NCBI GenBank assembly: GCA_046497275.1
Contig: JAWOFX010000088.1
Coordinates: forward strand, 60,001 to 92,000
Length of the DNA: 32,000 nt
Direction: 5' to 3'
DNA from: Promethearchaeia archaeon
Lineage (GTDB): Archaea; Asgardarchaeota; Lokiarchaeia; Sigyniarchaeales; SOKP01
This document shows, piece after piece, positions 3,809 to 23,959 of this stretch. The notes beneath the pieces were generated by a model that was not told where the DNA came from, did no database searches, and saw only the letters and a list, made by a program, of their open reading frames with translations. Made by a program: the position numbers and the translations under genes. How positions within the stretch are numbered: position 1 is the stretch's first letter; every line of letters starts with the position of its first letter.

Positions 3809-4336
3809 TTATTTTTTATTAATCGTAATAATTTCTTCAGAGAGTTTTTTGAAGGCTTCCTCAACATTCTCTCCCGTCTTTGCCGAAGTTATTATTTCGC
3901 CAATTGAATTAATTTCATTGCCTAATTTTTCTACTGTTTTTAAAGATACTTTTGACTCAAGATCATTCTTGTTCCCAATGAGGATAATTGGTATCTCTGA
4001 AAGATATTTTTTGATATCTTGAATCCAGAAATCCTTTATTTGTTCAAAAGTTTTTGGTCTTGTTAAATCTCCAACAACAATCGCCCCTTTACTCCCATAA
4101 TAATATTTTTCTCTCATTTTTGCCCATCGTTCTTGTCCAGCTATGTCCCATAAATTTAGAAAAACTTTTTGATTGTTTGCCAATAATATTTCCTTGGAAT
4201 AAATATTAGTACCAATAGTACTACGATAATCCTTATTAAATCTATTAGAAACGTACCTAATAACTAAACTTGTTTTCCCTACAGCGGGATCGCCGATAAT
4301 TATTACCTTTAAGTAATACTTCTCATCTGAATTCAT
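3809..4336 (-). CDS. Rab-like small GTPase
   Basis: G1 GDPAVGKT, G2 STIG, G3 WDIAGQE, G4 NKND, G5 SAK; 175 aa. Confidence 0.93.
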   Translation of the reverse strand: MNSDEKYYLKVIIIGDPAVGKTSLVIRYVSNRFNKDYRSTIGTNIYSKEILLANNQKVFLNLWDIAGQERWAKMREKYYYGSKGAIVVGDLTRPKTFEQIKDFWIQDIKKYLSEIPIILIGNKNDLESKVSLKTVEKLGNEINSIGEIITSAKTGENVEEAFKKLSEEIITINKK

Positions 4337-4467
4337 TTTTATTCCACTAAAAAAAAAGATAGATTAATTTTTCTAATAAATAAATAATTAGATATAAATA
4401 TAAAAATAATTAAAATCTAAATATCAAAAAAAATGACAAATATTATTCAAATAGAGGGATTTTAGAT

Positions 4468-5556
4468 ATGACAACAGGCGTGGTATATGGAGATATATAT
4501 CTCTCACACCGAATAGGAACCCATGTTGAATCCCATACACGATTAGTCGAATTGATGAATTTCTTGGAAGAAAAGGGTATCTTTGAAAATGATGATTTTT
4601 CGCTTATAAACCCTAGAAAAGCAACCTTAGATCAAATTGAATATATTCATACTGAAAACCTAATTGATCAAGTTCAAAAAATGAGCGAAAGAGCGGAAAA
4701 TACAGGAAATGTACAGAGTCTTGATATGGACACATTAGTATCCTCTAAAACCTATGAAGCTTCATTATATTCCGTTGGAGGTAATCTAGATGCTATAGAT
4801 AAGATACTTTCGGGTGAGATAAAAAATGCATTCGCTGCTGTGCGACCCCCAGGTCATCATTCGAACGCATATAAATGTGCGGGATTTTGTATCTTTAATA
4901 ATATTGGTATCGCAACAGAATATTTATTTCGAGAGAAAAATGTTAAACGAGTAGCAATTATTGATTGGGATTGCCATCACGGAAATGGCACACAAGATAT
5001 ATTCTATGATGGATCAGAGAACGGAGAAGTAGTCATGTTAAGCTCACATCAAGATGGAAGGACACTTTATCCTGGAAGCGGTTTTACAAACGAGATTGGG
5101 TCGGGAAAGGGAGAGGGTAAAATTATAAATTATCCTATGCCCCCTCGCGCTGCTGAAGATATTATTCTGCTCTTTTTTGATGAGATAATTGAACCTGTTT
5201 TAAATGAATTCAAACCGGAATTTATTTTAATTTCAGCGGGATTCGATATACATCATACCGATAGATTAACAAATATGGGTTGGACTTATCAAGGACCCGC
5301 TAACTATTTGAAAAAAATTAAGGAAATTGCTGAAAAATTCGCAAATGGAAGAATTTCGATTACCTTAGAAGGAGGGTATGAGGCAGATAAGCAAGCAAGA
5401 GCAATATACAATTGCCTGAGGGTGTTAAATAATGAATATGATAAAATCATTGAGGAAAAACCCAGGAAATCAGATAAAGATGTATTAAATTATGTGAATA
5501 AGAAATTAATTCCTGATATTAAGCAGAACTTATCTTCATATTGGGAGTGCTTTTAA
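4468..5556 (+). CDS. Histone deacetylase/AcuC/AphA-family Zn-dependent deacetylase
   Basis: RPPGHH, GFCIFNN, DWDCHHGNGTQDIFY, SAGFD and LEGGY motifs are all intact. Confidence 0.95.
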   Translation: MTTGVVYGDIYLSHRIGTHVESHTRLVELMNFLEEKGIFENDDFSLINPRKATLDQIEYIHTENLIDQVQKMSERAENTGNVQSLDMDTLVSSKTYEASLYSVGGNLDAIDKILSGEIKNAFAAVRPPGHHSNAYKCAGFCIFNNIGIATEYLFREKNVKRVAIIDWDCHHGNGTQDIFYDGSENGEVVMLSSHQDGRTLYPGSGFTNEIGSGKGEGKIINYPMPPRAAEDIILLFFDEIIEPVLNEFKPEFILISAGFDIHHTDRLTNMGWTYQGPANYLKKIKEIAEKFANGRISITLEGGYEADKQARAIYNCLRVLNNEYDKIIEEKPRKSDKDVLNYVNKKLIPDIKQNLSSYWECF

Positions 5557-5688
5557 TCTTATTCCTAATTTTTATTTTTCCTTACTATTTTATCAATATT
5601 TAAAATAATTTTATAAACATAAAACCCATATTTATAATATTGTAAATCTAGATAAGTAACTTATTAATCATCAATAAGAAGATATCTT

Positions 5689-6606
5689 ATGTCATATGAA
5701 AATGAAGGAAATGATGAAGAAGAAGAAAAAGAAATAAAAAGACCTTCTATTCCACCTCCAAAAATTCAAGCCCCAAAAATTAGACCTCCTCCAAGCCCCC
5801 CACCTAGAAGAACTCCTGAATCTGATATGACTCCATCGCAACCATCATCTGCACCACCCAAACCTCCATCATCAATACCCACTCAATCGGCTCCACAACC
5901 AGAACAATATTCTCCACCTCCACCTCAACCTCAACCTGAAATGACTCCTACTACATCTATCCCAAGTGAATCGCAATATAGTAATTTAGAAACACAATTA
6001 GAACAAAAAGACGTAAAAATTCAAGAATTGCAGAATCAAAATTCTAATTTAAATAGCTTACTACTGGAGAAAGATAATAATATTCAACAACTTAATAATA
6101 AAGTAAATTCTCTCCAAAATCAACTCCAAGAATATGAAACTCGTGTTAATCAACTTAATGAACAAAAATCTAGTTTAGAATCACAAATACCTCAATTACA
6201 AAGCAACATTCAACAATTAGAACAGGAAAATGCTAATCTTAAACAACAAATATCTCCTCTACAATCTAAAATAGAACAATTAACAGAGGAAATTAATTAT
6301 AAAAATAAAAGAATAGAGGAATTGAAAGAACCTAAGGCAGTTATGCCATCTAGTTTAGCGCAAGGGAAGACATCTCAAGGATCTGACGATTATTCCAGTT
6401 CTTCTTTAGGTATGGGAACATCCTCGTCCTCAAGTAGTGTATCTGGGACTTCATTTACAGACACTAAAAGAAGAGTCTGTCCAAATTGTGGTGCATCTGG
6501 AGCAGCTATTAAAGAGGTAGAAGATAAAAATAAGATAATTAGCTATATCCCAAAACCGACGTATGCCAAGAAGAATGTGTGCACGAAATGTGGGTTTGAG
6601 TTCTAA
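5689..6606 (+). CDS. Hypothetical protein: Pro-rich N-terminus, long coiled coil, Ser-rich linker, C-terminal C4 Zn ribbon
   Basis: Poly-Pro tracts at aa 19-92, heptad pattern at aa 100-212, CPNC...CTKC at the C-terminus. Confidence 0.8.
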   Translation: MSYENEGNDEEEEKEIKRPSIPPPKIQAPKIRPPPSPPPRRTPESDMTPSQPSSAPPKPPSSIPTQSAPQPEQYSPPPPQPQPEMTPTTSIPSESQYSNLETQLEQKDVKIQELQNQNSNLNSLLLEKDNNIQQLNNKVNSLQNQLQEYETRVNQLNEQKSSLESQIPQLQSNIQQLEQENANLKQQISPLQSKIEQLTEEINYKNKRIEELKEPKAVMPSSLAQGKTSQGSDDYSSSSLGMGTSSSSSSVSGTSFTDTKRRVCPNCGASGAAIKEVEDKNKIISYIPKPTYAKKNVCTKCGFEF

Positions 6607-6984: not shown

Positions 6985-9900
6985 ATGTCTGGATTAGATG
7001 AAGGTCTTTTAGGACCAACAATCACGAAAAAGCGAGTTATTGCTCTTGCACTAGTCACTATCATAATGATCGCTGCATTCGCATACTCTGTAATGATTTA
7101 TAGCTGGTTATTTGGTTCACCCCGTAAAAGTCCAAATGAAAGATTAGAAGGTGCTCCAGAAGAGGATGCGTTATTAATTCTTCCTGAATCGGGGTACAAT
7201 TGGAGTGAATTAGCGGAAAATTTAGATCTCGATGATCCTGATTTACTCGATCAATTGAGAGATTTACATGATGGTAATATTGATTTATTAGATCTCTTAC
7301 AATATGCTGAATTAGCGGCTGCCTTGGCAGGATCCGATATTGAAGTATTTCGAGTATATAATATTCCATCCTATGAAGAAGTAAGTGAAAAATTATGGAA
7401 GTTTGAATGTTTTGATGAGTTTCTGGGTGATTCTTGGGAATGTAATGTACCTCTCCAAAATTATGATTTTTATTCATATAGTGATTATTACTCTAAACAT
7501 TCTGGATTAAATATTTATAATATTTCAATGCCTTTATCTCCCGGTTTAGGTTCAAACTCTTTTATGATTCCAAATTTGTTCCCGAATCCTTATATCATGG
7601 AAAATAGCATTAAAGTTCCAAATATAACTCCCGGATCAGAAGTTTTAAGAAAAAATGCTTTTAATTCCACTACATTAACTCTTGATTTTACATCTGAAAA
7701 TTCTGTTAATATGACATATGAATTATTTGGATTAACATTACCAACTAATACAGAAATTAATAATTCTGCCTTAGATGAGGATTATACTCCAGCAATCATA
7801 AGAGATAGATATCTTCAACTCCCTCCCGATATTTCTACTTATTTAGATTTTAATGTTCACCCAAATATTAATTTTCATTACAATAATTTAAGAACCATCA
7901 TAAATGATGAAGATACTTCTTTTGTTGTCGCTAATAAAATCAGAAATTATCTACAGGAAAACTTTAGTTTTGGATATAATGCTCTTGAAAATTCTCCCCC
8001 AGCTGATGGAGAGGATCTTGTGGAATGGTTCTGTTTTCATGAAGAGGGTATTTGGACTCACTTCGCTTCTGCCTTTTGCGTTTTCTGTAGGGCTTTTGGA
8101 GTTTCTTGCAGGTTTGTTGATGGATATAATTCCCGATATGCCGATACGGTAAACGATCCTATAATGGGAGATGGAATAGCTGTAAAATATAGAAATTTAT
8201 ACAATTGGGCGGAAGTTTACATACCAACTGATGTGTCTGGAAATGGCATATGGGTTCAAATGGATATGCTTTACGATTCTTTTGGAGGAGGTTCAGGAGT
8301 TGGACCAATATTAAATAATTATAATATAACTCTTTCCAGTAATTTTACATCTGGACCTCGAGGATCAATTGCGCAACTTAATGCAACCTTGAGTAGTTCA
8401 TATAATCTTTCTGTTTCTGATAAAAATATTCAATTTTATGATTATACTATGGATGAAATTTTAGGTTTTAGCACTACTGATTCAAACGGGTTAGCTACTT
8501 TCACATTTCCAATTGATGATAATCAAACTGTAGGACCACATATAATATATGCAAGCTATGGTGGCGCTGCTAATTTGACTTTTTATATCGTAGATGGTGA
8601 TATACAAGTCAATTTAACCTCAGTTAGCCCACCGCAAGTTAATATTTCCCAAGACCCATATACCACAATAAGTGGAACTGTAAGGGATCCAGTTAATGGA
8701 AAACCAGTGAAAAATGCAATTATGAATTTAATCTTATATCAAAAAGGTACAAATAATATTGTAAATCCTTCTTTCAGTCCTTCTTCAATAACAGCAAATG
8801 ATAATGGAGTATTTAGCCAAACTGTAAATATAGATTCTTCGGTTCCTTATGGACAGTATGAAGTAAGAGTAGATTTTAATGGAAGTTGGGCTAATCCTTT
8901 AAGTCCATCATTTCCTTTCACATATCCATTTATTAACAATTACAGCAACAGATTAGATTTAAACGTTACAAAAGAATTAACGTATTCATTGTGGTTTTAT
9001 ATTAATGATATCCCTGCTACTGATAATTCCAATCCCTTGGTATCTCGCTTTTCTACGATCGAACTGAAAGCGATTGTTTATAATGGAACAGGCGACTTAG
9101 CAAAAAATGAAATCATCGGATTTTATGATGGTTCTGGAACTTTAATTGGGCAAAATGTAAGTGATGAGAATGGAGTTGCAATTTATAATTATAATGTTGG
9201 CATTAATGTTCCAGCAGGTCCAAATCAAATTATTTCCCGAATTGGAACTATTTCTAATAGTTCATATTATATTTTAAATGCTCCAATAAATATCTATCCA
9301 ATAGATTGCCCAAATCCTAATAGTGTCAGTCGAAGTTCTCTAGATGATGAAGATTTCACTATTCAAGGTTATTTAGAGGACGATTATTCTAATCCAATAA
9401 GAAGTGCGATAATTTATATTAATTTATACGATCAGAGTGACTCAGATGTCACATCCCAATACCTTGAATATGTCAGTGGATCTTTTATAACGGATAATAA
9501 CGGCAACTTTTCTCTGCAGTTTGGAGTAGATAACATTACACCATTGAATAATTATACTCTTAATGTAAGCTTTTATGGACAATTTAATAATCCTTCTGTC
9601 AGTTTTGTTTCTTCTCAAACACAAGAATCTCCTTATGAATTAGAAGTCATTGATCCATATCAAATTGATATTTATTTTACAATCGATGGAACTCCAACAA
9701 AATTATTCTATAATGATGGAAATCCGCCTAAACGATATAATCTTGGTGAAAATATAAATTTTGGAGTTGAAATATATCAAGGTGGCAGTCCTGTTGATAA
9801 TGACACAGTATATTTCTATGATTATGATGTTAGTAATGATATTCCGTTTCATACATATGAGTTTAATGGATTTGAGACACCATTAGGGTATTACAATTTT

Positions 9901-10719
9901 TCTGTGAATACAGGAAGCTGGAATGCAGGATTACATGAAATTAGAGTAACTTATGGTAATTATGGTGTATATAATTTTACTTACGTACTTATTAATAAAT
10001 CTATTTCAATCAATACAAATTTGGATTCTCCAAGCGATTATACTATTCAAAGACTTTCAGAAAGCTTAACTATTTCTGGGAACGTTTATGATTTTGATAG
10101 TCTCGATCATTTACGAGGTCTAGGAATAGGATTATATCTATTCGATATTAATGGTCAAGATTATTCAGATGATTTGAATTTTGCATCTGGATATTCTCAA
10201 AATATGACTTTAGATCAAGATGGTACATTTCAGTTTGTTATTAATTCTGTAAATGAAATTCCGATAGGAGAATATAATTTAAGAGTTGATTTCAATGGAA
10301 CGGTAATAGAATCCGCAATATATTTGTCTGATTATCTTGTTCATTCTTCAAGCTCTCCAATAAATATAAATATTACAGCAGGAGTTCAGATTGATGGTAA
10401 TTATGATACTGTTTATGATAAAGATCAATTTTATTACAACGATACAATGTATGTCTATGGATATTTAAATTGGGATAATCTTACAGTTATGAATAATTAT
10501 GAGGTAAATATAACGATACTTGATGCTTTAGACAATATATTGGAAACCAAAATTGCTACTACTGATCCAAGTGGATTTTTCAATACATCATTTACAGTTA
10601 AAAATTGGGATGAGGATACTACAAAAGTGATAGTCAATTTTTTACCCGAAGATAATTTTGACTTTCCTGACTATTATTATGTTGAGGCAAAATCTCAACA
10701 AGTTTTTAGAGAGATTTGA
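6985..10719 (+). CDS. Membrane-anchored surface protein with a transglutaminase-like domain (apparently inactive) and tandem Ig-like beta-sandwich repeats
   Basis: N-terminal TM (VIALALVTIIMIAAFAYSVMIYSWLF); TGase-fold signature GIWTHFASAFCVFCRAFGVSCRFVDGY...YNWAEVYIP...WVQMD; repeated TDxNG and RVDFNG motifs; many N-x-S/T sequons. Confidence 0.8.
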   Translation: MSGLDEGLLGPTITKKRVIALALVTIIMIAAFAYSVMIYSWLFGSPRKSPNERLEGAPEEDALLILPESGYNWSELAENLDLDDPDLLDQLRDLHDGNIDLLDLLQYAELAAALAGSDIEVFRVYNIPSYEEVSEKLWKFECFDEFLGDSWECNVPLQNYDFYSYSDYYSKHSGLNIYNISMPLSPGLGSNSFMIPNLFPNPYIMENSIKVPNITPGSEVLRKNAFNSTTLTLDFTSENSVNMTYELFGLTLPTNTEINNSALDEDYTPAIIRDRYLQLPPDISTYLDFNVHPNINFHYNNLRTIINDEDTSFVVANKIRNYLQENFSFGYNALENSPPADGEDLVEWFCFHEEGIWTHFASAFCVFCRAFGVSCRFVDGYNSRYADTVNDPIMGDGIAVKYRNLYNWAEVYIPTDVSGNGIWVQMDMLYDSFGGGSGVGPILNNYNITLSSNFTSGPRGSIAQLNATLSSSYNLSVSDKNIQFYDYTMDEILGFSTTDSNGLATFTFPIDDNQTVGPHIIYASYGGAANLTFYIVDGDIQVNLTSVSPPQVNISQDPYTTISGTVRDPVNGKPVKNAIMNLILYQKGTNNIVNPSFSPSSITANDNGVFSQTVNIDSSVPYGQYEVRVDFNGSWANPLSPSFPFTYPFINNYSNRLDLNVTKELTYSLWFYINDIPATDNSNPLVSRFSTIELKAIVYNGTGDLAKNEIIGFYDGSGTLIGQNVSDENGVAIYNYNVGINVPAGPNQIISRIGTISNSSYYILNAPINIYPIDCPNPNSVSRSSLDDEDFTIQGYLEDDYSNPIRSAIIYINLYDQSDSDVTSQYLEYVSGSFITDNNGNFSLQFGVDNITPLNNYTLNVSFYGQFNNPSVSFVSSQTQESPYELEVIDPYQIDIYFTIDGTPTKLFYNDGNPPKRYNLGENINFGVEIYQGGSPVDNDTVYFYDYDVSNDIPFHTYEFNGFETPLGYYNFSVNTGSWNAGLHEIRVTYGNYGVYNFTYVLINKSISINTNLDSPSDYTIQRLSESLTISGNVYDFDSLDHLRGLGIGLYLFDINGQDYSDDLNFASGYSQNMTLDQDGTFQFVINSVNEIPIGEYNLRVDFNGTVIESAIYLSDYLVHSSSSPININITAGVQIDGNYDTVYDKDQFYYNDTMYVYGYLNWDNLTVMNNYEVNITILDALDNILETKIATTDPSGFFNTSFTVKNWDEDTTKVIVNFLPEDNFDFPDYYYVEAKSQQVFREI

Positions 10720-10754: not shown

Positions 10755-12359
10755 ATGAATCGAGAATTATTATTTGGGAAAAATAGGAATTATAGTACAT
10801 CCATATTTCTTTTTTTCATCCTTTTTGTAATTTTATTTAATTCAATTTCTATATTTGTTTTTGATGGAATTAAGAGTTCTGAAAATAAAGATCAATATAT
10901 TAAACAATCAGCTTGGACTTGGGCAACTTTAGATTTAACAAATCCAGAAGATATCAATAATTCCCGCTTTTCACATTTTTCAAATATTAGTATTGAAGGC
11001 AGACTTTACAATAAAATAACTGAAGATAATAAATCTGGTGAGATAATTGTCATTGAAGTTGATGGGAATATAGATACGAGATATTCTAGTGTTACAAATA
11101 TAAATGGTATTTTTCAAATTAATTACACGATAGATCCCTCTCTTGATGTCTATTCACCTCATATAATAAAAGCAAAGGTCCAGGATTTAGAAACTGATCC
11201 CCCTGGAGGGGAAGTTGAATATGATGATTTTTACCGGATAAATGTAAACGCTACATCTTATCTTGATGTTACATTTTCCAATAAACCATATCTTCCTGAT
11301 GAAGAATTTGATTTAATTGGATATTTGAGATATAATAATGAAAATGGAAATGGAATTCCAGGTGAATCGATTACTTATTACTGGACCAATGGAACTTATG
11401 ATTGGATACCTGGTAATTTTTTAACTAATGCGGCAGATGGATCAATTTCCGAAGTCATAAGTTTACCTATCAACCCTCAATCAATCCATTTATTTTTAAA
11501 TCTAAGTTATCCCGGTGATCTCCCAAATATAAAATCATCCCAGATAGTAATTGGTCCATTTGATATATTTTACAACATTTCATGTACTTGGAATATGTTA
11601 AACGAAACCTCTGAGGGTGGAGATTATACGATTAGAGGACAAATCTGGGAAAAAGGTAATCCTAGCCGTAAAATTTACAATAGGCAAGTGAATTTATATT
11701 ATGAAGGAGAAGGTCTAATAGGAAGTGCAACTACAGATGCCAACGGAAATTTTTCTTTCATTTATTCAATTCCCCCGGGTACAGGAAATAAATCCATCAG
11801 AATTCAATTAGTAAACACTGCAGGTTTGTTTTTGACCAATGAAACGCGGATATTAATCACGGCTGGAGTCCCAATCCTCCCTCCTGGCTTTAATATTAGA
11901 CCTTTCCAATGGTTTTTTATAATAGGTCTTCCGATTATTATCGGAATAATTGCTGCACTTGGAATTTACGGATATTTCTATTATAAAAAAGAAATATCTG
12001 CCTCGCGGCTAGTTAATATCCCACTTGAGGGAAAGATTAGAAATCTAAAAATATTAAAGGATTCCGGAAGAATAGAAGAGGCACTTTCATATCTATTTAA
12101 TGCGATTTATGTTGAATTAGTTGGAGCAAAATACGGAAGAAAAAGAAAATTTAATGAAACAATCCGTGATTTTGCTATAATTTCTGTGCAAGATTTTAAA
12201 TTAGATCCCGCTAAAATATATCCTTTCATTCAAAAAATAGAACAAATAATTTATGCTCAACCCTTCAAAGTCACAGAAGAAGAATTTTATAAAACAATTG
12301 AGCTATTCTCGCCCGTATATTATCAATTAACGGGATACAAGTTTATTCTTAATTTTTAA
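10755..12359 (+). CDS. Membrane protein with extracellular Ig-like repeats, a TM helix and a cytoplasmic DUF4129-like domain
   Basis: N-terminal hydrophobic segment; TNING and TTDANGNF repeats; TM FQWFFIIGLPIIIGIIAALGIYGYFYY followed by KK; C-terminal ETIRDFA...IEQIIYA motif. Confidence 0.7.
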   Translation: MNRELLFGKNRNYSTSIFLFFILFVILFNSISIFVFDGIKSSENKDQYIKQSAWTWATLDLTNPEDINNSRFSHFSNISIEGRLYNKITEDNKSGEIIVIEVDGNIDTRYSSVTNINGIFQINYTIDPSLDVYSPHIIKAKVQDLETDPPGGEVEYDDFYRINVNATSYLDVTFSNKPYLPDEEFDLIGYLRYNNENGNGIPGESITYYWTNGTYDWIPGNFLTNAADGSISEVISLPINPQSIHLFLNLSYPGDLPNIKSSQIVIGPFDIFYNISCTWNMLNETSEGGDYTIRGQIWEKGNPSRKIYNRQVNLYYEGEGLIGSATTDANGNFSFIYSIPPGTGNKSIRIQLVNTAGLFLTNETRILITAGVPILPPGFNIRPFQWFFIIGLPIIIGIIAALGIYGYFYYKKEISASRLVNIPLEGKIRNLKILKDSGRIEEALSYLFNAIYVELVGAKYGRKRKFNETIRDFAIISVQDFKLDPAKIYPFIQKIEQIIYAQPFKVTEEEFYKTIELFSPVYYQLTGYKFILNF

Positions 12360-12490: not shown

Positions 12491-12862
12491 ATGGGTCTTT
12501 TCAGTAAAGATGTAAAACCACAATTCATAGATGTTGAACGCAAAAAAGAAAATCTTCGAATATTAATGAAAACCGAAAGATCTAAGGAAGCAATTGCCTA
12601 CATATATCTTATCTATAATGATCTTATTAAGAATAAATATGAAAAACCTCGATTGGCTTATCAGACCATACGTGAGTATGCAATCGTAGCTGTAAATGAG
12701 TTAGGACAAAAACCCGAAACCATTTATCCCTTTATAAAAAAAATTGAAGATATAATATATGGGGGGGTTGAACCTACTAAAAAAGAATTTGAATTTACAT
12801 TAAATATGTTTTCAAACCTTTATAATGAGATTACAGGCAAAAACTTTGGTTTCAATATTTAG
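12491..12862 (+). CDS. Stand-alone soluble DUF4129-like protein, paralog of the upstream gene's C-terminal domain
   Basis: QTIREYAI...IYPFIKKIEDIIYGG aligns with ETIRDFAI...IYPFIQKIEQIIYAQ in 10755-12359. Confidence 0.72.
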   Translation: MGLFSKDVKPQFIDVERKKENLRILMKTERSKEAIAYIYLIYNDLIKNKYEKPRLAYQTIREYAIVAVNELGQKPETIYPFIKKIEDIIYGGVEPTKKEFEFTLNMFSNLYNEITGKNFGFNI

Positions 12863-12911: not shown

Positions 12912-14657
12912 ATGGCAAGTATTGAGAGTTCTACAAGAAAGAGTGTAAAGATTTCCAAGGGAATTTTATATATCTTCTTTACAGTTTACTTAATCGTTAT
13001 AGGAGTATATTTAACAGGATTTATCGAATCCTATCAATCTACTAATCCCGGAGAATTGCCCGTTTTTACTAATTATGTTCCTTTAGCTTGTTATTTGGGA
13101 GCAGCAGTTGTTGGAATTAGTTTTATTATTTTTATTCGCAATATAACAGCTCAAAAAACACGGGAACTGAAGTCTAAACGAAAATCACAAATCTCCCTTT
13201 TTAAACAAGCACTATTCATTATCATTTTTATATTTGCTTTTATCCCATTATTCTCTCCTATAATTGATCAAGGTGTAAATAATCATAATTTTTCAGTATA
13301 TAATTCTGGGTGGAATGGTTCCTCAGATTTCAGACAAACGATGATTGATGAGGGTTATGATGTGATGTCAATCCAATCAAGTTTAAGTGCTACAGAGAGA
13401 CTTGATAAGTCTATATGCTTAGTTTTATTGGGACCAAATCAATTTTATAATCCCCTTTTTGAAATTCCGTTTTTTGTTGATTTTTTTAATGGAGATAATG
13501 CGATCTTAATTTGTCACGATCATGGTTCAACTAGAGAATTATTATGGCAAATTCTCCTCTCAAGTTTACTTAGTCCTAATGCTACTGAAATGATCCCAGT
13601 CACATTATTTGCGACTGGTTATCTAAGGGATAATGCATCTTATCTTACTAATCCAAAATTTCCAATAATCACTCAATTTGAACCTCACCCCACTACTAAT
13701 GGTATTGATGATGTTATTCTTTCTACAGCAACAAGCGCAGCGGGAGGTCCCCTTGTAGATATTTTTGGATGGAATGTAATTGCTCGTGGTTCACCTTACA
13801 GTTTTGTAGACAGAAATGATGACGGTAGATTTAACTCTTCAGACGATTATTTAGATCTTTCTTTTATGGCAGCTGCATTACCCATCCCAGAGGAATATCT
13901 CAAATTACCACTCGGCGGAGATGAATTTACCCCTATCACTTTTATGACAAAAGATACGGGAAGTGCTCGTGTATTTGTGTCTTCAGATGCAAGTATGTGG
14001 AATAATGAACTAATCAATCTTCCCGGATATGATAATAAACAATTTGCAATTAATGTAATAGATTGGTTAACTCGTCAAGATGAAGGAGACCCTAAGGATA
14101 ATTGGATTGTAGCATTCGATGAAGCTCATATTCGTCCAGAACAATCGAGAGATTTAAGTTCTGCGGGAATTTATGGCTATATTATGCAGTATATTATTCA
14201 CTTAAGTACAAACCCAATAACTGCGTGGATTTATCCCTTGTTGGCAATTTATACTCTCAGACGTTATTTACCGGGAGGTAAAAAGAAAAAAGAGAAGAAA
14301 AAAATAGAAGAAGAAGAAAAAAAGGAAGAGAAGATGAGATTTCGCACCTCTTCTTTTTTCGCAAAAAAAATTGATTGGTATCGTGACAAAAGTCAATATA
14401 AAAAAGCTTTATTATTATTGAACCGTCGCTTAGAACGAAAGTTAAATGCCCAGTTAGGAGGGAAAAAAATAACAACAGATAATGTAGTTAATCTAGTACG
14501 ATCTAAAGAACCAAATATAAATAAAAGTAAACTTAAACGCATCTCCCGATTTATTGATAAAATAATATCCCTGAAATCAGGTAAGTTAAAAATTAAAGAA
14601 GAATCTGAATTCGAAGAATTTTTCTTTGAAATGGAATGGGTTGTTTCAAATATATAA
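12912..14657 (+). CDS. DUF4350-like (GATase-like fold) membrane protein
   Basis: Three N-terminal TM segments; FSVYNSGWNGSSDF, RVFVSSDASMWNN, DNKQFAINVIDWL and VAFDEAH motifs; C-terminal TM and a Lys/Glu-rich tail. Confidence 0.72.
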   Translation: MASIESSTRKSVKISKGILYIFFTVYLIVIGVYLTGFIESYQSTNPGELPVFTNYVPLACYLGAAVVGISFIIFIRNITAQKTRELKSKRKSQISLFKQALFIIIFIFAFIPLFSPIIDQGVNNHNFSVYNSGWNGSSDFRQTMIDEGYDVMSIQSSLSATERLDKSICLVLLGPNQFYNPLFEIPFFVDFFNGDNAILICHDHGSTRELLWQILLSSLLSPNATEMIPVTLFATGYLRDNASYLTNPKFPIITQFEPHPTTNGIDDVILSTATSAAGGPLVDIFGWNVIARGSPYSFVDRNDDGRFNSSDDYLDLSFMAAALPIPEEYLKLPLGGDEFTPITFMTKDTGSARVFVSSDASMWNNELINLPGYDNKQFAINVIDWLTRQDEGDPKDNWIVAFDEAHIRPEQSRDLSSAGIYGYIMQYIIHLSTNPITAWIYPLLAIYTLRRYLPGGKKKKEKKKIEEEEKKEEKMRFRTSSFFAKKIDWYRDKSQYKKALLLLNRRLERKLNAQLGGKKITTDNVVNLVRSKEPNINKSKLKRISRFIDKIISLKSGKLKIKEESEFEEFFFEMEWVVSNI

Positions 14658-14736: not shown

Positions 14737-15717
14737 ATGACAGTACCGAGTAAAGGAGAGAAGTATGACCACCCAGAATTGGATGTCACCCCCATTCGTG
14801 AGATTGCTCAAGATGTATTATCGGAAGTAAGTAGAGTGATCGTTGGATATGGGGAAACATTACAGCAATTATTCATAGCTTTACTTGTAAATGGACATGT
14901 TCTTTTAGAAGGCGTTCCAGGTTTAGGAAAAACAGTGATGGCAAAAACTTTTGCTGAAACTCTTGGGATAAGTTTTAGAAGAGTTCAATTTACACCAGAT
15001 CTTTTACCCGCTGATATTACGGGAACTAAGATCTTTTCCCAAGAGAAAGGGAACTTTGTGCTTCAAAAAGGCCCACTATTCGCCAATTTAGTTCTTGCTG
15101 ATGAAATAAATAGAAGTGCGCCTAAAACTCAAGCCGCGCTTCTTGAAGCTATGGCTGAGCGCCAAATCACCATAGAAGGGGAAACATTAGCGCTTGAGAA
15201 ACCCTTTATCGTAATAGCTACTGAAAATCCTATTGAGATGGAAGGCACATATCCGCTTCCGGAAGCACAGGTTGATAGATTCTTATTCAAACTCTGGTTA
15301 GATTATCCAGAACAAGATGAAGAAGTTGAGATTATGCGGCGGCAATTATCTGGCGATTTACCGTCTGTACAACGAATTACGACTGGCTCTGAAATTTTAG
15401 CTGCCCAAAACTTAGTGAATCAAGTGTATATTGATGAGAGAATCCTTAAATATATCAGAGACCTTATTTTAAAGACCAGAAGTCATCCACAAGTACAAAT
15501 GGGGTGTGGTCCACGTGCATCTTTAGTCTTGATGAAATGCTCGAAAGCACGAGCGGCTATCCTTGGACGAACATATGTAACACCTGATGATGTGCGTGCA
15601 TTAACCGTTCCAGCCCTCAATCATAGACTTCTTTTAAAGCCGGAAGCTGAATTAGAAGGTCTTGATGTGAAAGCGGTTGTTAAGAATATACTTGAAGAAA
15701 TTCCAATTCCGATATAA
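14737..15717 (+). CDS. moxR: MoxR-family AAA+ ATPase
   Basis: Walker A GVPGLGKT, RVQFTPDLLPADITG, Walker B LADEINR, ATENPIEMEGTYPLPEAQVDRF. Confidence 0.97.
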   Translation: MTVPSKGEKYDHPELDVTPIREIAQDVLSEVSRVIVGYGETLQQLFIALLVNGHVLLEGVPGLGKTVMAKTFAETLGISFRRVQFTPDLLPADITGTKIFSQEKGNFVLQKGPLFANLVLADEINRSAPKTQAALLEAMAERQITIEGETLALEKPFIVIATENPIEMEGTYPLPEAQVDRFLFKLWLDYPEQDEEVEIMRRQLSGDLPSVQRITTGSEILAAQNLVNQVYIDERILKYIRDLILKTRSHPQVQMGCGPRASLVLMKCSKARAAILGRTYVTPDDVRALTVPALNHRLLLKPEAELEGLDVKAVVKNILEEIPIPI

Positions 15718-17126: not shown

Positions 17127-18608
17127 ATGAAACGCTATTATCTCACAATATTGAGGATTTTAAATGCTCTTTTATTTGTATGGATTATATTCATTTTTCT
17201 TTCATTATTTGACTTTAGCGCAGTCTTAACAACCTCCGATAATGAATTAGTCATTTTAGATGTGATCTTATCTATCAAGAATCTCATAAGTTATGGCTTG
17301 TATTTTATTTTATATTTAATAGCTTATGGGATCGCCTTCATTATGGCGGGTTTATTCTCACCTTTTGCATTTTTTAATCTGAATTATACACTAACTTTTA
17401 TTCAGCAATTCTTTAAAAATTACTTAAGTGTATGGTTTTCTTTCCCCGGAGGGGCAGCTCCGGAATTATTTCAAGTTCCTCCCCTAATGTTGCAAGAATT
17501 ATTACTTTTTACAGAAGATTTTTATCTCCTTATTTTCCAAATTCTCTTCATAATCGCAATAATTTATCTAATTAGGGGAATCATTTCAAGTGATCCTAAA
17601 ATTAACATGAGGGCTTTAGGATGTTTAATCTTAATGATTGTCATTCCTCTCATAATTTTTGGATTTAGAGATATGTTAGCATTGTTTAATTTGGTAGAAC
17701 CATTTAATTCTCTTGGTATAATAAATTTAAACGAGTTGGCAGATCCTTTAAGTCCATTATTTGATAATCTCCCTATTGACAACTTTTTTGCATTCCTAGC
17801 AAGTCCTGTGGCCTTATTCGCTATTTTTAGCTATTTATATTTGGAACTTGCATTCCAAATAAATTATATAGACACAGTAACACGACCTTCATTAGAAAGA
17901 AGTGATAGGTTGGAAGCTCAGTTAAATTTACTAAGAAAAGAAGCGGGTCATATTACTGCAAACATTGATAAAATAAAAGAAGAGGCTAAGAAGAAAAAAG
18001 AAGAATTAGGGATTGAAAGAGAATCTATCGGAAAATTTTTGACTCAAAAAGACAAAAAATTTTCATATGTAAAAGAAATGATTGAAAAAAGAAAATTAGA
18101 GTCTGAAGAAAAGAAACTGGTGCGCGCAGCTTCAAAAACAAGAAGATTGGGAAGATATATAGAAAGGTTATTTAGAGAGGATTCTGAGGCAGAAGATACA
18201 ATTACTGCAAAATCCTCGGCACCTAGAGCAAGAAACCTAGCCATTTCAACAATATCAAATGCAGCATTTAGATTAATTATGTTAATTTTAATCAGTTTTA
18301 TTATAATACATCCGAAATGGTTTTTCAAAAATGTCTTTCAATTACCTCCAGCAATTACAGAAAGTGTCGCTACATTAAGTCCCGAAATAATTCTTATTCT
18401 ATTATTACCAATCATTTTATTATTTCCAGTAATTGGTAAAATTATCTCTTATATAAAACATAGAACTCTTGTGTTGAGATTAAAGCAAGAGGGAAAAATT
18501 AAAGAAATACTCGCTTCAGTGGGTGATTATGTGAAGAAAGAAGAGATACCAGAAGACCAGACTGAAGAAGAAATACCTTTTTCGGAAATTGCGACAGAAG
18601 CTACATAA
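17127..18608 (+). CDS. Polytopic membrane protein of unknown function with a charged coiled-coil loop
   Basis: Several hydrophobic helices at about aa 5-245, a Lys/Glu-rich helical region at about aa 255-360, two more TM helices, and an acidic tail. Confidence 0.75.
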   Translation: MKRYYLTILRILNALLFVWIIFIFLSLFDFSAVLTTSDNELVILDVILSIKNLISYGLYFILYLIAYGIAFIMAGLFSPFAFFNLNYTLTFIQQFFKNYLSVWFSFPGGAAPELFQVPPLMLQELLLFTEDFYLLIFQILFIIAIIYLIRGIISSDPKINMRALGCLILMIVIPLIIFGFRDMLALFNLVEPFNSLGIINLNELADPLSPLFDNLPIDNFFAFLASPVALFAIFSYLYLELAFQINYIDTVTRPSLERSDRLEAQLNLLRKEAGHITANIDKIKEEAKKKKEELGIERESIGKFLTQKDKKFSYVKEMIEKRKLESEEKKLVRAASKTRRLGRYIERLFREDSEAEDTITAKSSAPRARNLAISTISNAAFRLIMLILISFIIIHPKWFFKNVFQLPPAITESVATLSPEIILILLLPIILLFPVIGKIISYIKHRTLVLRLKQEGKIKEILASVGDYVKKEEIPEDQTEEEIPFSEIATEAT

Positions 18609-18622
18609 ATAAAATAAAAAAT

Positions 18623-19552
18623 CTATAATTCTAACATAAATCTAGCTAATTCCTTTTTTCTCTGAAGATTATTCATTAGAGTATTTGTTATAAAAACATT
18701 TATTCCTAAATCTTGAATCCTAGATTTCAGTTCTCTATCTTTATTATCAATAATGAAATTTCCTAAAAACGATTGATAATATTTTGCTACTCCGAAACAA
18801 GAAACTTCCAAGTTTGCCCATTTTAATAATTTATCTGCTGGACCTTTAACAGTTTCTCCAGCAATAATAGGGCTAATTCCATAAACCTTTTCTTTTACTT
18901 TACTTAGAGCTTCCTTTATTCCATTTACCTTTAATATTGTTCCAATGGAAACTATTGGGTTGGAGGGACAAATGATAATTCTCTTTGCTCTTTTTATTAA
19001 ATCTAAAGAAATATCAATAGGATTTGCATTCTTTATCCCTTTAAATTCCACATCTAGAATTTTTGGATTACATCCGTATTTTATATAATATTCTTCAAAA
19101 TGAATAAGTCCTACATTTGTTTTGATATATGTTTGTACCTTTTCATTACACATAGGCATTATTTTCGCTTCTACATCTAACTTATGACAAATTTTTTCAG
19201 TTATTTCTGATTTAGAAAATCCTTCAGAAAAGAGGTCGCTTCTATAGATATGAGTAGCTAAATCCTTATCACCCGCATTAAACCATGAAATATCATAAAA
19301 TTTGGATAATTCCTTTAAACAATGATAACTCTCATTTTGAAACCCCCAGCCTTTCTCTCTATCAATGACATTAGCTAAAGTATAAGTAATTATATCTAAA
19401 TCCGGACATATATAAAGTCCGAATAACTTTATATCATCGGCTGTATTTACTATGACTTTGATCCTTTTTTGATCGATTATATGAGCCAATCCATCAATAA
19501 ATTTAGCCGCACCTACACCTCCAGCTAATAAGAGATAAAAATCATCATTCAT
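18623..19552 (-). CDS. cofD: 2-phospho-L-lactate/phosphoenolpyruvate transferase (F420 biosynthesis, CofD/FbiA)
   Basis: AGGVGAAKF, VNTADD, ICPDLD, GDKDLATH and PSNPIVSI motifs. Confidence 0.95.
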   Translation of the reverse strand: MNDDFYLLLAGGVGAAKFIDGLAHIIDQKRIKVIVNTADDIKLFGLYICPDLDIITYTLANVIDREKGWGFQNESYHCLKELSKFYDISWFNAGDKDLATHIYRSDLFSEGFSKSEITEKICHKLDVEAKIMPMCNEKVQTYIKTNVGLIHFEEYYIKYGCNPKILDVEFKGIKNANPIDISLDLIKRAKRIIICPSNPIVSIGTILKVNGIKEALSKVKEKVYGISPIIAGETVKGPADKLLKWANLEVSCFGVAKYYQSFLGNFIIDNKDRELKSRIQDLGINVFITNTLMNNLQRKKELARFMLEL

Positions 19553-20969
19553 TTAAATTTTCACTTAATTTGTATATTATTTCTTCTAAATTCTTACGTT
19601 TGGGTCGTTTTTGTAATTCTTTGGGATATCCTACAGTAATAAAGGCCATAGGATCAAACTCTTTAGGGAGTTTAAGTATTCTTTTAACTTGCTTTTTTGC
19701 AAATAAGGGAGCACAGTACCAAGAACCAGCTAAACCTTCAGATTCCATTGCTAATAGTAAATATATCGCAGATGTACTTATGCTTTGAACACCTAATAAA
19801 TATTCATTTTGTAATCTTTTTTTATCAGGATAACTTTCCAAATCTGATTTATCTAAACATAATAATATTAAGATTGGAGCTTTTAGAAAACACTTTTTTG
19901 TTTTATCTATTTTATTATTGATAAATTTGGTAGATTTCCCATCTCTGCTTAAATCTTCCCTTAATTTTTCATTCATTTTATCAATTAAAATTTTTCTTGT
20001 TTTCCCTCTCTCTAAAACAATATATCTCCAGAATTGTCCATTATGAGCACTGGGAGCCCATCGAGAAAGATCGATACATTTTTTTACTAAATCTATATTA
20101 ACTGGTTTCTCTAAAAAATCTAATTTATAACTTCTTCTATTCATTAAGATTTTTTTTATATCTTCATTATTTGCTTTCCTAAAAAGATCCTTACTCTTTT
20201 CTCTTAGAATTGAGTTAATTGAAACATCCTCTTTAATCTTATAATTATATCCCTTTATCAAGACAATGGGTATTGCTTCATCTGATTCTCCCATAACTAA
20301 TTGAGCTGCAGCTGCAAGACTGTCTATTTGTCCTATTATAGTGGTTTTTAGCTCTTTTTCATACAAATCTTTTTCCCCTCTCTTATCTAATATGGGGGAC
20401 ATTCCGGATACACCAATAGCAGTCCCCACAGATCCAATCCTAAAAGATCTTCCAAAGGAATCAGAAATAATTACTGCTAAATTTTTATTAGTTTTATTTT
20501 GGATATAGTGTCTAATTTTTCTTGCCTCATTGTCTGGATCATTGGGTAGGAGAGAGATCTTGTTATTTCCTTCCACATTGGATTTATCAATCCCAGCATC
20601 AGCACAAACAAAACCATGTTTCGTTTCGGTGATAAGGACATGTTCTGATTTTATTATTCTGTTTGATTCATCGAGTATTGCTTGTATTAGTTCTGGATTC
20701 TTGATGGGTAAATTAGCCCTTTTGCTTTTTTTTTTGATACTATGATAAATATCAAATGCTCTTTCACTTGGGTGTATTTTATTTAAATCTTTTATTAAAC
20801 CAAGACTTTTTGACACAATTATTTGCGCAATGACTAAAATATCTCCATTATCTAGAAAAACCTCATTTTTAGTTAAGCCTTCTATAATAAGCTCTGCAAT
20901 ATTATCCCCCTCTTTAATTAAGGGAATACCAGTGATTCCAATTAACTCAATACTATTTTTTTTTTGCAT
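19545..20969 (-). CDS. cofE: Coenzyme F420-0:L-glutamate ligase fused to a C-terminal nitroreductase domain (FbiB-type)
   Basis: CofE motifs GIPLIKEGD, CADAGIDKSN, ISDSFGRSFRIG and GESDEAIP; nitroreductase motifs RRSY...APSAHNGQFWRY and DPMAFITVGYP. Confidence 0.93.
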   Translation of the reverse strand: MQKKNSIELIGITGIPLIKEGDNIAELIIEGLTKNEVFLDNGDILVIAQIIVSKSLGLIKDLNKIHPSERAFDIYHSIKKKSKRANLPIKNPELIQAILDESNRIIKSEHVLITETKHGFVCADAGIDKSNVEGNNKISLLPNDPDNEARKIRHYIQNKTNKNLAVIISDSFGRSFRIGSVGTAIGVSGMSPILDKRGEKDLYEKELKTTIIGQIDSLAAAAQLVMGESDEAIPIVLIKGYNYKIKEDVSINSILREKSKDLFRKANNEDIKKILMNRRSYKLDFLEKPVNIDLVKKCIDLSRWAPSAHNGQFWRYIVLERGKTRKILIDKMNEKLREDLSRDGKSTKFINNKIDKTKKCFLKAPILILLCLDKSDLESYPDKKRLQNEYLLGVQSISTSAIYLLLAMESEGLAGSWYCAPLFAKKQVKRILKLPKEFDPMAFITVGYPKELQKRPKRKNLEEIIYKLSENLNE

Positions 20970-21085
20970 ATCATTATTAAATTTTAAAATTAAGGTTTGA
21001 TAAAATTATGAATTAAATCATCTAAAATAATAGCATATTTTAAGGCAAAATGATTCTTTTCACAATTTTCTTTAAAAAGATTTAT

Positions 21086-21101
21086 TTTTTTCATGAAAAA
21101 A
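21086..21101. terminator. Candidate T-rich terminator / palindrome downstream of lipS1
   Basis: Perfect 16-bp palindrome TTTTTTCATGAAAAAA, 17 bp after the lipS1 stop, giving a T-run on both strands. Confidence 0.3.
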
Positions 21102-21118
21102 TCTTTCTTTAATAATTC

Positions 21119-22174
21119 TTAAATTCTTAAGTATTTATTTAGTTTTTTTCTTTTCATTTGGGCTTTCTCCTCATAATAGTCAGGTATAGCACAACAAGCA
21201 GAATAATATTTCAATTTCATCTCTGGAAAATTATTGTTTATCCATTTCAAAGTTTTTCTCGAAGGCATTTCAATTCGAGTTATTCCTGCTAAAATTGCCT
21301 TCTTCTCAATATTTTCACGTATTTTACCTCTTGGTCTCATGCAACCTAATGAAATTTCTTTATTGGGAAATATGAAACGTGTTAATGCAATTATTTTTGC
21401 AATATCATACTTACTAGGGGTTTTGAATTTTTTTTTTGAATTTTTGGGAGGAATAAGAGCAATTAAGACGATTATTGAGGGGTCTAAACCTATTTTTTTA
21501 ATAAACCTAATACAATCTAATTCTTTACTAATATTTCCGTAATGTAGACCTACACAGATATGAGGAATAACGTTTAAATTATATCTTTGAAATATTTTAA
21601 CTGCTTCTTTATAATCCTCTGGTTTTTTATTTAGGTGATAAATATTTTGAATAATTTCGGGATCAATATTGATATCAAATGAAATTATATCCACCTGAGC
21701 TTCTACTAATTTCTTAGCTGTCAGATCATTTAATAATCCGGTATGTATATTTATTATCAAGTCTGTTTCTTTTTTGATTTTTTTAATCGTATCAAGAAAG
21801 TCCAATAAAGGCACGGATCCGTCTTTCAAACATCCACCTGATATTAATGCTCCAACGCCTCCCTTTTTATCATGATTCTTTAAATATTCATATAGTTTAT
21901 CATTTGTGGTTAGACCTTTCATTCCTCTCAAATACTTTTTATTACAATGCTCACAATTTAATTCACAGTAATCTCCAGTGATACTTATAGCTGGATATCT
22001 ATCATTTGGCACATAAACTTTTAAAAGATCCCCAAAATATTTTCTTTTCTTTTCTAAAGCAATTTCCAAAAATGGGTCAACTAATTCATCTTGAATTTTT
22101 ATAAATTCTGAAAAATCTCTCCAAGATGCTTCATTTCGCTGAATTTTTGATATCAAATCTTCATTATTATTCAT
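21119..22174 (-). CDS. lipS1: Radical SAM lipoyl synthase subunit LipS1
   Basis: CELNCEHC (CxxxCxxC) plus GCMR and CC (SACC), the motifs described for Thermococcus kodakarensis LipS1; adjacent to a lipoate ligase gene. Confidence 0.8.
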   Translation of the reverse strand: MNNNEDLISKIQRNEASWRDFSEFIKIQDELVDPFLEIALEKKRKYFGDLLKVYVPNDRYPAISITGDYCELNCEHCNKKYLRGMKGLTTNDKLYEYLKNHDKKGGVGALISGGCLKDGSVPLLDFLDTIKKIKKETDLIINIHTGLLNDLTAKKLVEAQVDIISFDINIDPEIIQNIYHLNKKPEDYKEAVKIFQRYNLNVIPHICVGLHYGNISKELDCIRFIKKIGLDPSIIVLIALIPPKNSKKKFKTPSKYDIAKIIALTRFIFPNKEISLGCMRPRGKIRENIEKKAILAGITRIEMPSRKTLKWINNNFPEMKLKYYSACCAIPDYYEEKAQMKRKKLNKYLRI

Positions 22175-22946
22175 ATTTTCTCAACCATTTATCTTGATTA
22201 TATTTCTCTGCAACGAGTTTTTTCGCCAAATTTAACTCATAATCAGAAAAATCTCCTTCTTGAAGATCAATTTGGAATATTTTTTCAAACCCATTTTTTA
22301 AGAATTTTATAAATTTCAATTCTTCATAATTTTGAATTTTATCTTGAATTCCTACACATTTGGCTCTTACAGATCTCACCATTTTGTTCTTAGAAACATT
22401 AGGAGGAGTTTTTAACACAGAATACATCAATTCGGGATCAATTTTTAATAATATCGTTCCATGCTGAAGTAAATAACCCTTTCTCCTTGCTTGAGCGTTT
22501 CCTGAAAATTTTTTACCATCTAAAAATATTGCTGGACAATGAATAATACCTTTTTCTGATTCTAATCCGTACATGTTTAAAGCTTCAATAATCCCTTGAT
22601 TTATAAGTTCGAATTGTTCCAAAACTTTATAAGCATTAAGATTTTTTAAAAATCTAATTGAACACACAATAGAATATGTTATCTCTCTCTTAGAATCATG
22701 AAAGACAGCTCCCCCTCCAGTAATTCTTCTCACAATATTAAAACCCCTTTTATTACAAAAATCCTCATCCACTTCATCTTTAAGACTTTGATTTCTTCCA
22801 ATGGAGGCGGTCGATGGATTCCATTTATAAAACCTAATTGTATAGGGGGATTTTTTTTGAATTATTGCTTCTAAAATCGCTTCATCTAAAGCCATATTCC
22901 ACAAACCATTTCTAATTTTTAACGGAATAAATCTCCATTGTTTCAT
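22167..22946 (-). CDS. lplA: Lipoate/octanoate-protein ligase catalytic domain (LplA/LipM family)
   Basis: NMALDEA, RFYKW, IGRNQ, RRITGGGAVFHD, KKFSGNAQ and LQHGTIL motifs; no fused LplB domain. Confidence 0.88.
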   Translation of the reverse strand: MKQWRFIPLKIRNGLWNMALDEAILEAIIQKKSPYTIRFYKWNPSTASIGRNQSLKDEVDEDFCNKRGFNIVRRITGGGAVFHDSKREITYSIVCSIRFLKNLNAYKVLEQFELINQGIIEALNMYGLESEKGIIHCPAIFLDGKKFSGNAQARRKGYLLQHGTILLKIDPELMYSVLKTPPNVSKNKMVRSVRAKCVGIQDKIQNYEELKFIKFLKNGFEKIFQIDLQEGDFSDYELNLAKKLVAEKYNQDKWLRKYE

Positions 22947-22954
22947 TGTTATTC

Positions 22955-23959
22955 TCAGAAATTTGTAAAATTTTTTAGTTGATTGTATATTTGTTCTCTT
23001 TCTTTTTGATTTAATTTTCGTGGGAAATTATATATCGGTCCCGACGGTTTTGATGTATAATAAGGTCTATTACAATCTGGACACCCAGTTGTCATGAAAG
23101 CTACACTTTCGTCGATGATAAATCGCAAATCATTTTTATTTATATTAAAATTGATTATCTCTCCCTTATTATTAAATGTTATATCTCTTAGATTTTTATC
23201 ATCATTAATTAGTAAATATCTGCCTAATTGACATTTCCTAAAATCTAATATTGTTGGTTGCTCCAAATGTTCTAATTTCGTTCCTTTGATGGGCATAAAC
23301 GCAAATAAAGCGGGTGTAATACTATATTTTTTTAATTGATTAATTAATTCCATGATCTCTTTCTGTGTATCTCCTAATCCCACTATTATATGTGTGGATA
23401 TAGTACCTTCGCTAAATATCTTTGTCGATTCAATTAAAACATCATAATGATCTCCCCAATTATATGGACTGTTTACAGAATTCCCTTTTACTCTTTCAAA
23501 TGTTTTTTCGGTAGCAGCATCTAATGCAATTCCAACTCTTTGAACCCCTAAAATCTTAAGTTCTCGGAGCTTCTCCATCTTCATTGGAGGGATAGCAATA
23601 GATATAGGAATAGAAGTTTCTTTCTTTATTTCTGAGACAATTTCAACCAAATCTTTAAAATTTTGAGGATAATTGAGAGTTTGGACGCATATTCTTTTAA
23701 ATCTTTTTGAAGGGGTCATATATTTCAATTTAGTAAGAAAATCTATAAATGGATAAATGGGCCAGCTTACTCGAGAGAGTTTATCTAATGAGGAATTAGA
23801 ACTACGTGCTTGAGGGCAGAAACCACAATTTGCTGCACATCGTCCTTTAATATAAGTCATTATATAACAAGTTGTCGGAGAATCTTTGATTTTAATGCTT
23901 GAAGATAATCCTAGCTTCACAGCACTTCCAATACTTACCCTTATTTTATTTACATCCAT
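22955..23959 (-). CDS. lipS2: Radical SAM lipoyl synthase subunit LipS2
   Basis: CAANCGFC (CxxxCxxC), LSRVSWP, and the LipS2 signature TxGCPxCNRP (TTGCPDCNRP). Confidence 0.83.
   Translation of the reverse strand: MDVNKIRVSIGSAVKLGLSSSIKIKDSPTTCYIMTYIKGRCAANCGFCPQARSSNSSLDKLSRVSWPIYPFIDFLTKLKYMTPSKRFKRICVQTLNYPQNFKDLVEIVSEIKKETSIPISIAIPPMKMEKLRELKILGVQRVGIALDAATEKTFERVKGNSVNSPYNWGDHYDVLIESTKIFSEGTISTHIIVGLGDTQKEIMELINQLKKYSITPALFAFMPIKGTKLEHLEQPTILDFRKCQLGRYLLINDDKNLRDITFNNKGEIINFNINKNDLRFIIDESVAFMTTGCPDCNRPYYTSKPSGPIYNFPRKLNQKEREQIYNQLKNFTNF

Follow-up and report, generated by a model that had tools for sequence, protein, structure and literature searches.

In Pseudomonas, the genes PA2875 and PA2874 are co-transcribed with tgpA, which encodes an essential transglutaminase that is active in vitro and whose substrate is unknown (PMC3507681). 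The bifidobacterial PFNA cluster comprises pkb2, fn3, a MoxR-type aaa-atp gene, duf58 and tgm (PMC8430577, PMC12067865), and in eukaryotes several proteins with a dead transglutaminase (TG) fold serve as scaffold or binding proteins, among them erythrocyte protein 4.2, Rad4/XPC, menin and FBXO21 (PMC10318531). We analyzed a stretch of 32,000 nucleotides (hereafter the window) from a Promethearchaeia archaeon of the Asgard order Sigyniarchaeales (GenBank assembly GCA_046497275.1, contig JAWOFX010000088.1, positions 60,001 to 92,000 of the forward strand), in which a gene for a TgpA-like protein of 1244 amino acids (aa) heads an operon of seven genes. A reading made from the sequence only had proposed that the catalytic Cys and His of this protein are replaced by Trp (W357) and Tyr (Y406). 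We found these replacements fixed among the close relatives of the protein. We consider it likely that the protein is signal-anchored and probably N-glycosylated, and that its TgpA-type ectodomain, devoid of thiol catalysis, persists in a non-catalytic role, as a binding or scaffold module, within an operon that occurs across the Asgard archaea.

The positions of W357 and Y406 were established by alignment and by structural modeling. A phmmer search against the PDB sequences returned Pseudomonas TgpA (6g49) as the sole match, with 19% identity and an E-value of 7e-4; in this alignment the W of GIWTHFAS falls on the catalytic Cys of TgpA GFCAHYAG, and the Y of YNWAEVY on the His of HAWVEYW. The alignment to a family hidden Markov model (HMM) gave the same ungapped register with orthologs from the Asgard class Jordarchaeia (GICVHFAS, HAWAEVW and WVQFD) and with bacterial TgpA sequences. 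Codons, phmmer and family HMM agree in placing W357 and Y406 at the Cys and His sites and in showing that D427 is kept, just as the sequence-only reading had described: where TG-like enzymes carry a Cys-His-Asp triad, this protein carries Trp, Tyr and Asp. One detail of that reading needs correction, as the H that it regarded as canonical in the motif GxCxHxAS is D or E in most family members. An AlphaFold2 (AF2) model of aa 45-470 had a predicted local distance difference test score (pLDDT) of 87 and a predicted template modeling score (pTM) of 0.83, and its top Foldseek match was the periplasmic domain of TgpA (6g4h, E 6e-13). Superposition of the two with VIA-align showed an intact TgpA-type fold, with a Z-score of 22.4 and a root-mean-square deviation of 3.4 Å (263/278 residues aligned), and the next-best structural match reached only Z 11.

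We then tallied the catalytic positions in 120 database homologs of similar length and in 80 family loci, each of the latter from a different species-level genome and all from Asgard metagenome-assembled genomes. The 120 homologs carried W in 112, Y in 5, F in 2 and S in 1 at the Cys position, Y in 119 and F in 1 at the His position, and D in 115, E in 3 and N in 2 at the Asp position. The 80 loci showed W67/Y9/F3/P1 at the Cys position and Y79/F1 at the His position, with Asp in 77. When the roughly 200 relatives were pooled, Cys never occurred at the position of W357, and the His position was Y in 198 and F in 2. An exhaustive phmmer search over 1.84 billion representative sequences recovered 53 proteins at E ≤ 1e-30; in each of those with alignable catalytic positions the Cys site was occupied by W, Y, F or P, and the His site, where it was covered, by Y. 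The homologs, the loci and all the close representatives are hence without the catalytic Cys and His, and the replacement is fixed in close orthologs. Within the family, W357 is conserved at 95%, Y406 at 98% and D427 at 94%, compared with a core mean of 0.69; W408 is invariant, and G355, FAS and E410 are likewise conserved. Since W357, Y406 and D427 are conserved above the domain average, they appear to be under purifying selection rather than in decay. The ectodomain is also the best conserved part of the protein, with 41-80% identity among the family loci versus 34-73% for the best whole-protein segment. Four small Transglut_core paralogs elsewhere in the same genome retain the G-x-C and His motifs, so the loss is confined to this gene.

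These data bear on several alternative explanations. An error in sequencing or assembly, or a pseudogene in decay, could have produced the two residues with little change, because TGG and TAC are each a single nucleotide away from a Cys or His codon, as the sequence-only reading had pointed out. The same reading had called two independent errors at exactly these sites unlikely, and the recurrence of the pair in about 200 independent assemblies bears it out; with the reading frame intact and both sites conserved above the domain average, we consider error or decay ruled out, at a negligible residual chance. An enzyme that works through other residues, for example C350 or C365, or through Tyr/Asp chemistry, would be in keeping with the conservation of D427 and of G355, FAS, W408 and E410, and with the presence of C350 and C365 in 83-84% of family members. 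Against such an enzyme, no Cys or His column of the ectodomain is conserved at 90% or above in the family alignment; among the nearby cysteines that had been brought up as substitutes, C365 is found in 83% of members, C368 in 20% and C375 in 19%, and one sixth of the members have L or S in place of C350 and T, S or V in place of C365. Substitution by these cysteines is unsupported, and an alternative Cys-His pair was rejected on the grounds of sequence conservation. Both the nucleophile and the base are absent from all of the roughly 200 relatives, and we know of no TG-fold enzyme that functions without Cys. We therefore regard residual catalysis as very improbable. Furthermore, no TG core was found by Pfam in the other genes of the operon, so that the system has no recognizable cross-linking or cleaving center in this lineage, which agrees with what had been proposed from the sequence.

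The dead site might alternatively have become a specific ligand pocket, in which a glycan, glycopeptide or amine would be bound by D427 and the aromatic residues W357, Y406 and W408, so that the domain would act as the head of a lectin-like receptor or adhesin; glycopeptide handling by PNGase-type TG folds would be the analogy. The Cys position is aromatic (W, Y or F) in 119 of the 120 homologs and 79 of the 80 loci, only Y or F is seen at the His position, W408 does not vary and D427 is kept. Both the TG-like protein and its 534-aa partner are rich in N-x-S/T sequons, and PNGase is among the structural neighbors (Z 5.2-5.6). However, other Asgard orders have P/D, P/M, P/T, A/H or G/H at the same Cys/His positions, and with such unrelated replacements the orthologs do not share one conserved ligand chemistry. 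A bulky Trp could just as well do no more than fill the cleft. A dedicated pocket therefore seems unlikely to us. The pseudoenzyme interpretation accommodates these observations as follows. With the thiol nucleophile and the general base both lost and the loss fixed throughout the family, the domain is predicted to be non-catalytic, in line with the sequence-only reading, and no thiol-based transglutaminase activity is expected of the ectodomain. By its sequence and modeled structure, the domain is a lineage-fixed pseudoenzyme: the fold is kept, the catalytic residues are replaced, and the replacement is conserved in an intact gene. Its most likely use is that of a binding or scaffold module.

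The features of the gene and of its operon are collected in the table below. The hydropathy scan of the 1244-aa protein revealed no transmembrane (TM)-like segment beyond aa 12-44 and no C-terminal anchor. Following the positive-inside rule, we take this segment as a signal anchor that would leave the remainder of the protein outside the cell. The Pfam matches of the stalk (Big_3_5, CarboxypepD_reg and MG2) were sub-threshold to moderate and extended to the C-terminus; NCBIfam gave no match for the TG-like protein. The whole protein contains 36 sequons, versus 18.8 expected from its composition, and its 534-aa partner has 14 versus 5.4. An approximately 2-fold enrichment was seen only in the predicted extracellular proteins, while the cytoplasmic genes of the cluster were at or below expectation. 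These results suggest that the TG-like protein is a signal-anchored extracellular protein that is probably N-glycosylated.

Table. Positions in the window of the TG-like gene, its parts and the downstream operon genes.
Feature	Coordinates	Strand	Basis
Gene for 1244-aa TgpA-like pseudo-transglutaminase surface protein (P0001)	6985..10719	+	Open reading frame and translation; Pfam; 120 full-length homologs sharing the start region
Lone N-terminal hydrophobic segment, aa 12-44, KKR ahead of it	7018..7116	+	Hydropathy scan
TgpA-type ectodomain, aa 91-443: beta-sandwich and transglutaminase core	7255..8313	+	AF2 model, Foldseek, VIA-align
Transglut_core (PF01841), aa 306-428	7900..8268	+	Pfam E 4.3e-14; 53.1 bits, above the curated membership cut-off of 23 bits
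TGG, W357 at the catalytic Cys position	8053..8055	+	
TAC, Y406 at the catalytic His position	8200..8202	+	
GAT, D427, triad Asp retained	8263..8265	+	
Stalk of immunoglobulin (Ig)-like, CarboxypepD_reg-like and MG2-like beta-sandwich repeats, aa 460-1244 (~780 aa), N-x-S/T-dense	8362..10716	+	Pfam
534-aa partner: N-terminal TM segment, Ig-like ectodomain, second TM segment (aa 381-410), cytoplasmic DUF4129-like tail	10755..12359	+	
123-aa free DUF4129-like protein	12491..12862	+	
581-aa membrane protein, DUF4350-like domain, three TM-like segments	12912..14657	+	Weak DUF4350 match, E 4e-4, below cut-off
MoxR-type AAA+ ATPase	14737..15717	+	AAA_3 E 3e-64, AAA_lid_2; Walker A GVPGLGKT intact
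TM-anchored DUF58/vWA protein, N-terminal TM-like segment	15786..17114	+	DUF58 E 4e-34, VWA_2; metal ion-dependent adhesion site (MIDAS) DSSNS at aa 245 intact
493-aa polytopic membrane protein, last operon gene, multiple TM-like segments	17127..18608	+	No family

The seven genes lie on the same strand and encode, in order, the TG-like protein, an Ig/TM/DUF4129-like protein, a free DUF4129-like protein, a DUF4350-like protein, MoxR, DUF58-vWA and a polytopic membrane protein. In the 534-aa partner, the tail shares 41% identity with the 123-aa product of the next gene (E 2e-21). No direct Pfam match to DUF4129 was obtained for either of them, even at E 10. The Jordarchaeia ortholog P0121 supplies a transitive link, as its aa 1125-1233 align with the 123-aa protein (E 9e-9) and enclose the DUF4129 match that Pfam places at aa 1164-1220; on this basis both tails are taken as DUF4129-like. 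The Jordarchaeia ortholog of the 581-aa protein matches DUF4350 at E 1.5e-18. The 493-aa protein belongs to no Pfam or NCBIfam family, its neighbors in the ESM Atlas are unnamed Asgard clusters only, and NCBIfam gave no match for any of the family-less partner proteins of the operon. Across the family loci, identity was 78-95% for MoxR and about 78-94% for DUF58, compared with the 34-73% of the best TG segment. Across the 80 family loci the genes keep the order Ras(-)-HDAC-coiled coil-TG-534-123-581-MoxR-DUF58-493, absences falling mostly where a contig end cuts the locus. The 534-aa gene is kept downstream of the TG-like gene in 64 of the 80, and the 493-aa gene is kept after DUF58 across the Asgard phylum.

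The genes on either side of the operon were also inspected. Directly upstream lies a trio spanning 3809-6606, made up of a Ras-like GTPase (-), an HDAC-family deacetylase at 4468-5556 (+) and a coiled-coil protein at 5689-6606 (+), and its members hold this place in 58-71 of the 80 family loci. At L091 and L096, two loci from the Jordarchaeia, the TG-like gene likewise has an HDAC-family gene as its divergent neighbor. Free amines are used by transglutaminases, and that in two Asgard classes a deacetylase accompanies a transglutaminase-type operon may go beyond mere synteny; the HDAC encoded here looks cytoplasmic. Convergent with the operon and unrelated to it is a minus-strand string at 18623-23959 that encodes CofD, a CofE-nitroreductase fusion, a radical-SAM protein, an LplA-like ligase and a second radical-SAM protein.

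To describe the range of the system, we searched the whole phylum and found matches in 271 of 400 Asgard genomes, and in 78 of the 90 with at least 90% completeness and at most 5% contamination. Strong matches (E < 1e-50) were restricted to the GTDB family of the window, where 107 of 134 genomes had one; weaker matches, with 25-34% identity, came from other Asgard orders and classes. Most of the distant TG-like genes precede DUF4350-MoxR-DUF58-493 and can on this account be treated as positional orthologs. Among the Asgard orthologs, Cys, His and Asp occur together (C/H/D) only in the Jordarchaeia ('Freyarchaeota' or Jordarchaeales by their source names), and the nearest relatives of these orthologs outside Asgard are bacterial TgpA proteins, all C/H. 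Other Cys/His states in the order of the window are P/D, P/Y and Y/C. Other Asgard classes show S/H, A/H, G/H and D/H, and one large family has P/T and P/M and has lost the Asp too. Judged by their residues, the S/H/D forms might conceivably act as serine-type enzymes, which does not hold for the W/Y form. Further changes are found inside the Jordarchaeales: a second core with P/H/D, one Y/H sequence and C/Y forms.

An ectodomain tree was rooted on bacterial TgpA, and C/H/D is the outgroup state. In this tree the Asgard proteins formed one clade (support 100), within which the order of the window (f1-f4), without Cys and His, was one clade (99), and the Jordarchaeia (98) were sister to the S/A/G/D/P group with a support of 93. 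On the best tree, Cys would have been lost three times or more. In an approximately unbiased (AU) test, a single loss was not rejected (delta lnL 6.6, p 0.236); repeated independent loss of the nucleophile is accordingly not claimed.

Several proteins carry more than one core. The Jordarchaeales orthologs at L090 and L091 and the proteins P0136-P0140 have two tandem TG cores. Their second core is always P/H/D; for the first, C/H/D prevails, but P0136 has Y/H, and P0140 and L091 have C/Y. By their residues, the first and second cores would form an active-plus-dead pair on one chain. The exhaustive search also recovered giant proteins of 1200-3250 aa with 2-4 Transglut_core copies (P0285-P0372). 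In these, a first copy of the S/H, A/H or G/H type is often followed by copies with C/H, so that a copy lacking the nucleophile recurs beside intact copies. In a single-contig genome of the same order as the window (L104, G135:C1:3259000-3278900), DUF58 and MoxR lie about 7 kb apart, with an insertion in the operon, and the TG-like gene encodes 2362 aa with P/Y/D.

On the basis of these results we propose the following model. The Asgard operon and the bacterial MoxR-DUF58-TgpA cluster would have a common origin, and an ancestral one-chain layout would have been split, leaving the ectodomain and the stalk on the TG-like protein and placing the second TM segment and the cytoplasmic DUF4129 on the next two genes. 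The dead TG ectodomain, close to the membrane, and the Ig stalk would join the 534-aa and DUF4350-like proteins in a membrane complex and make up its outer part. In the cytoplasm, the MoxR ATPase and DUF58, with its vWA/MIDAS domain, may assemble or remodel this complex via the DUF4129 domains. The analysis shows the fold, the operon and how widely it is distributed, that the catalytic residues are lost and their replacement fixed, and that C/H/D is the outgroup state; the extracellular location, glycosylation, complex formation and binding or scaffold role are what we infer. Three points weigh against a retained binding or scaffold module. Catalysis by a non-thiol mechanism is formally possible; the high conservation of W and Y could reflect packing of the core only, not binding; and in family f16 (L107 6634-11856 (-), G067), the gene that precedes DUF4129-DUF4350-MoxR-DUF58-493 encodes a protein of 1740 aa with Ig-like repeats, in which no TG core was detected by Pfam or by the family HMM, even with filters off, so that the TG module may be dispensable there.

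A bolder form of the model is that the Asgard TgpA-type operon encodes a machine for envelope assembly or remodeling that has no need of TG chemistry, and that in the order of the window a W-Y-W aromatic ligand pocket sits at the base of a giant glycoprotein, itself a main component of an Asgard surface free of an S-layer. We offer this tentatively, as a rather doubtful extension. If it were true, the essential role of bacterial TgpA might be non-catalytic too.

Dead TG-fold proteins in eukaryotes were already known, and so was TgpA as a poorly understood essential enzyme of the bacterial envelope. What is new here is a whole Asgard lineage with a TgpA-type ectodomain in which Trp and Tyr are fixed in place of Cys and His, and a MoxR-DUF58-DUF4350-DUF4129 operon that persists phylum-wide with the triad intact only in the Jordarchaeia and degenerate elsewhere. 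The persistence of the operon while the triad degenerates outside the Jordarchaeia suggests that its conserved function is not cross-linking as such. The Asgard orthologs offer natural active/dead pairs with which the role of MoxR-DUF58-TgpA modules can be dissected, and they draw attention to a giant surface protein, conserved and rich in sequons, of archaea that have a still uncharacterized cell surface. In the library that we could search, no paper dealt with this protein or with the Asgard operon, and the main text of the Promethearchaeum syntrophicum glycoproteome paper does not mention the protein.

We finally compared the window protein and its operon with the known systems. Like the window protein, protein 4.2, Rad4/XPC, menin and FBXO21 have kept a TG or papain-like fold, lost the Cys and taken up a scaffold or binding use, and protein 4.2 is a structural neighbor of the AF2 model (Z 6.5-6.9). 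In contrast to the window protein, they are intracellular and lost activity independently in each case, none has a TgpA-type ectodomain or lies in a MoxR-DUF58 operon, and a Trp/Tyr pair is not their reported replacement; protein 4.2 has Ala at the Cys position. The PFNA cluster resembles the Asgard operon in combining a surface protein of beta-sandwich (FN3) repeats, a MoxR ATPase, DUF58 and a TG-like protein, but it is bacterial, includes a Ser/Thr kinase, and has the repeats and the TG domain on separate proteins.

The Jordarchaeia orthologs (for example P0121 and the gene at L096:7435-11163) occupy the same operon position, ahead of DUF4350-MoxR-DUF58 and the polytopic membrane protein, and share the N-terminal anchor, the TgpA-like ectodomain (about 30% identity) and the Ig-like repeats. 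They differ in keeping Cys, His and Asp, in carrying DUF4129 at their own C-terminus and, in one subgroup, in the tandem TG cores with P/H/D in the second. TgpA of P. aeruginosa (PA2873) differs from the window protein in its intact Cys-His-Asp triad, in its polytopic N-terminal TgpA_N domain (DUF3488, PF11992), which has no Pfam match in the window protein with its single TM segment, and in its C-terminal DUF4129 (PF13559), which it carries on the same chain; neither DUF4129 nor a C-terminal TM segment was found in the window protein by Pfam and hydropathy, and DUF4129 is encoded here by the next two genes. The window protein adds a stalk of about 780 aa, and the Asgard operon adds the DUF4350-like and polytopic membrane genes. 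TgpA and the window protein nevertheless share the two-part periplasmic or extracellular fold; both are membrane-anchored with the TG domain outside, and both are linked to DUF4129. The linkage with MoxR and DUF58, which we take PA2875 and PA2874 to encode, is found here on the same strand and is preserved both among the family loci and in further Asgard classes.

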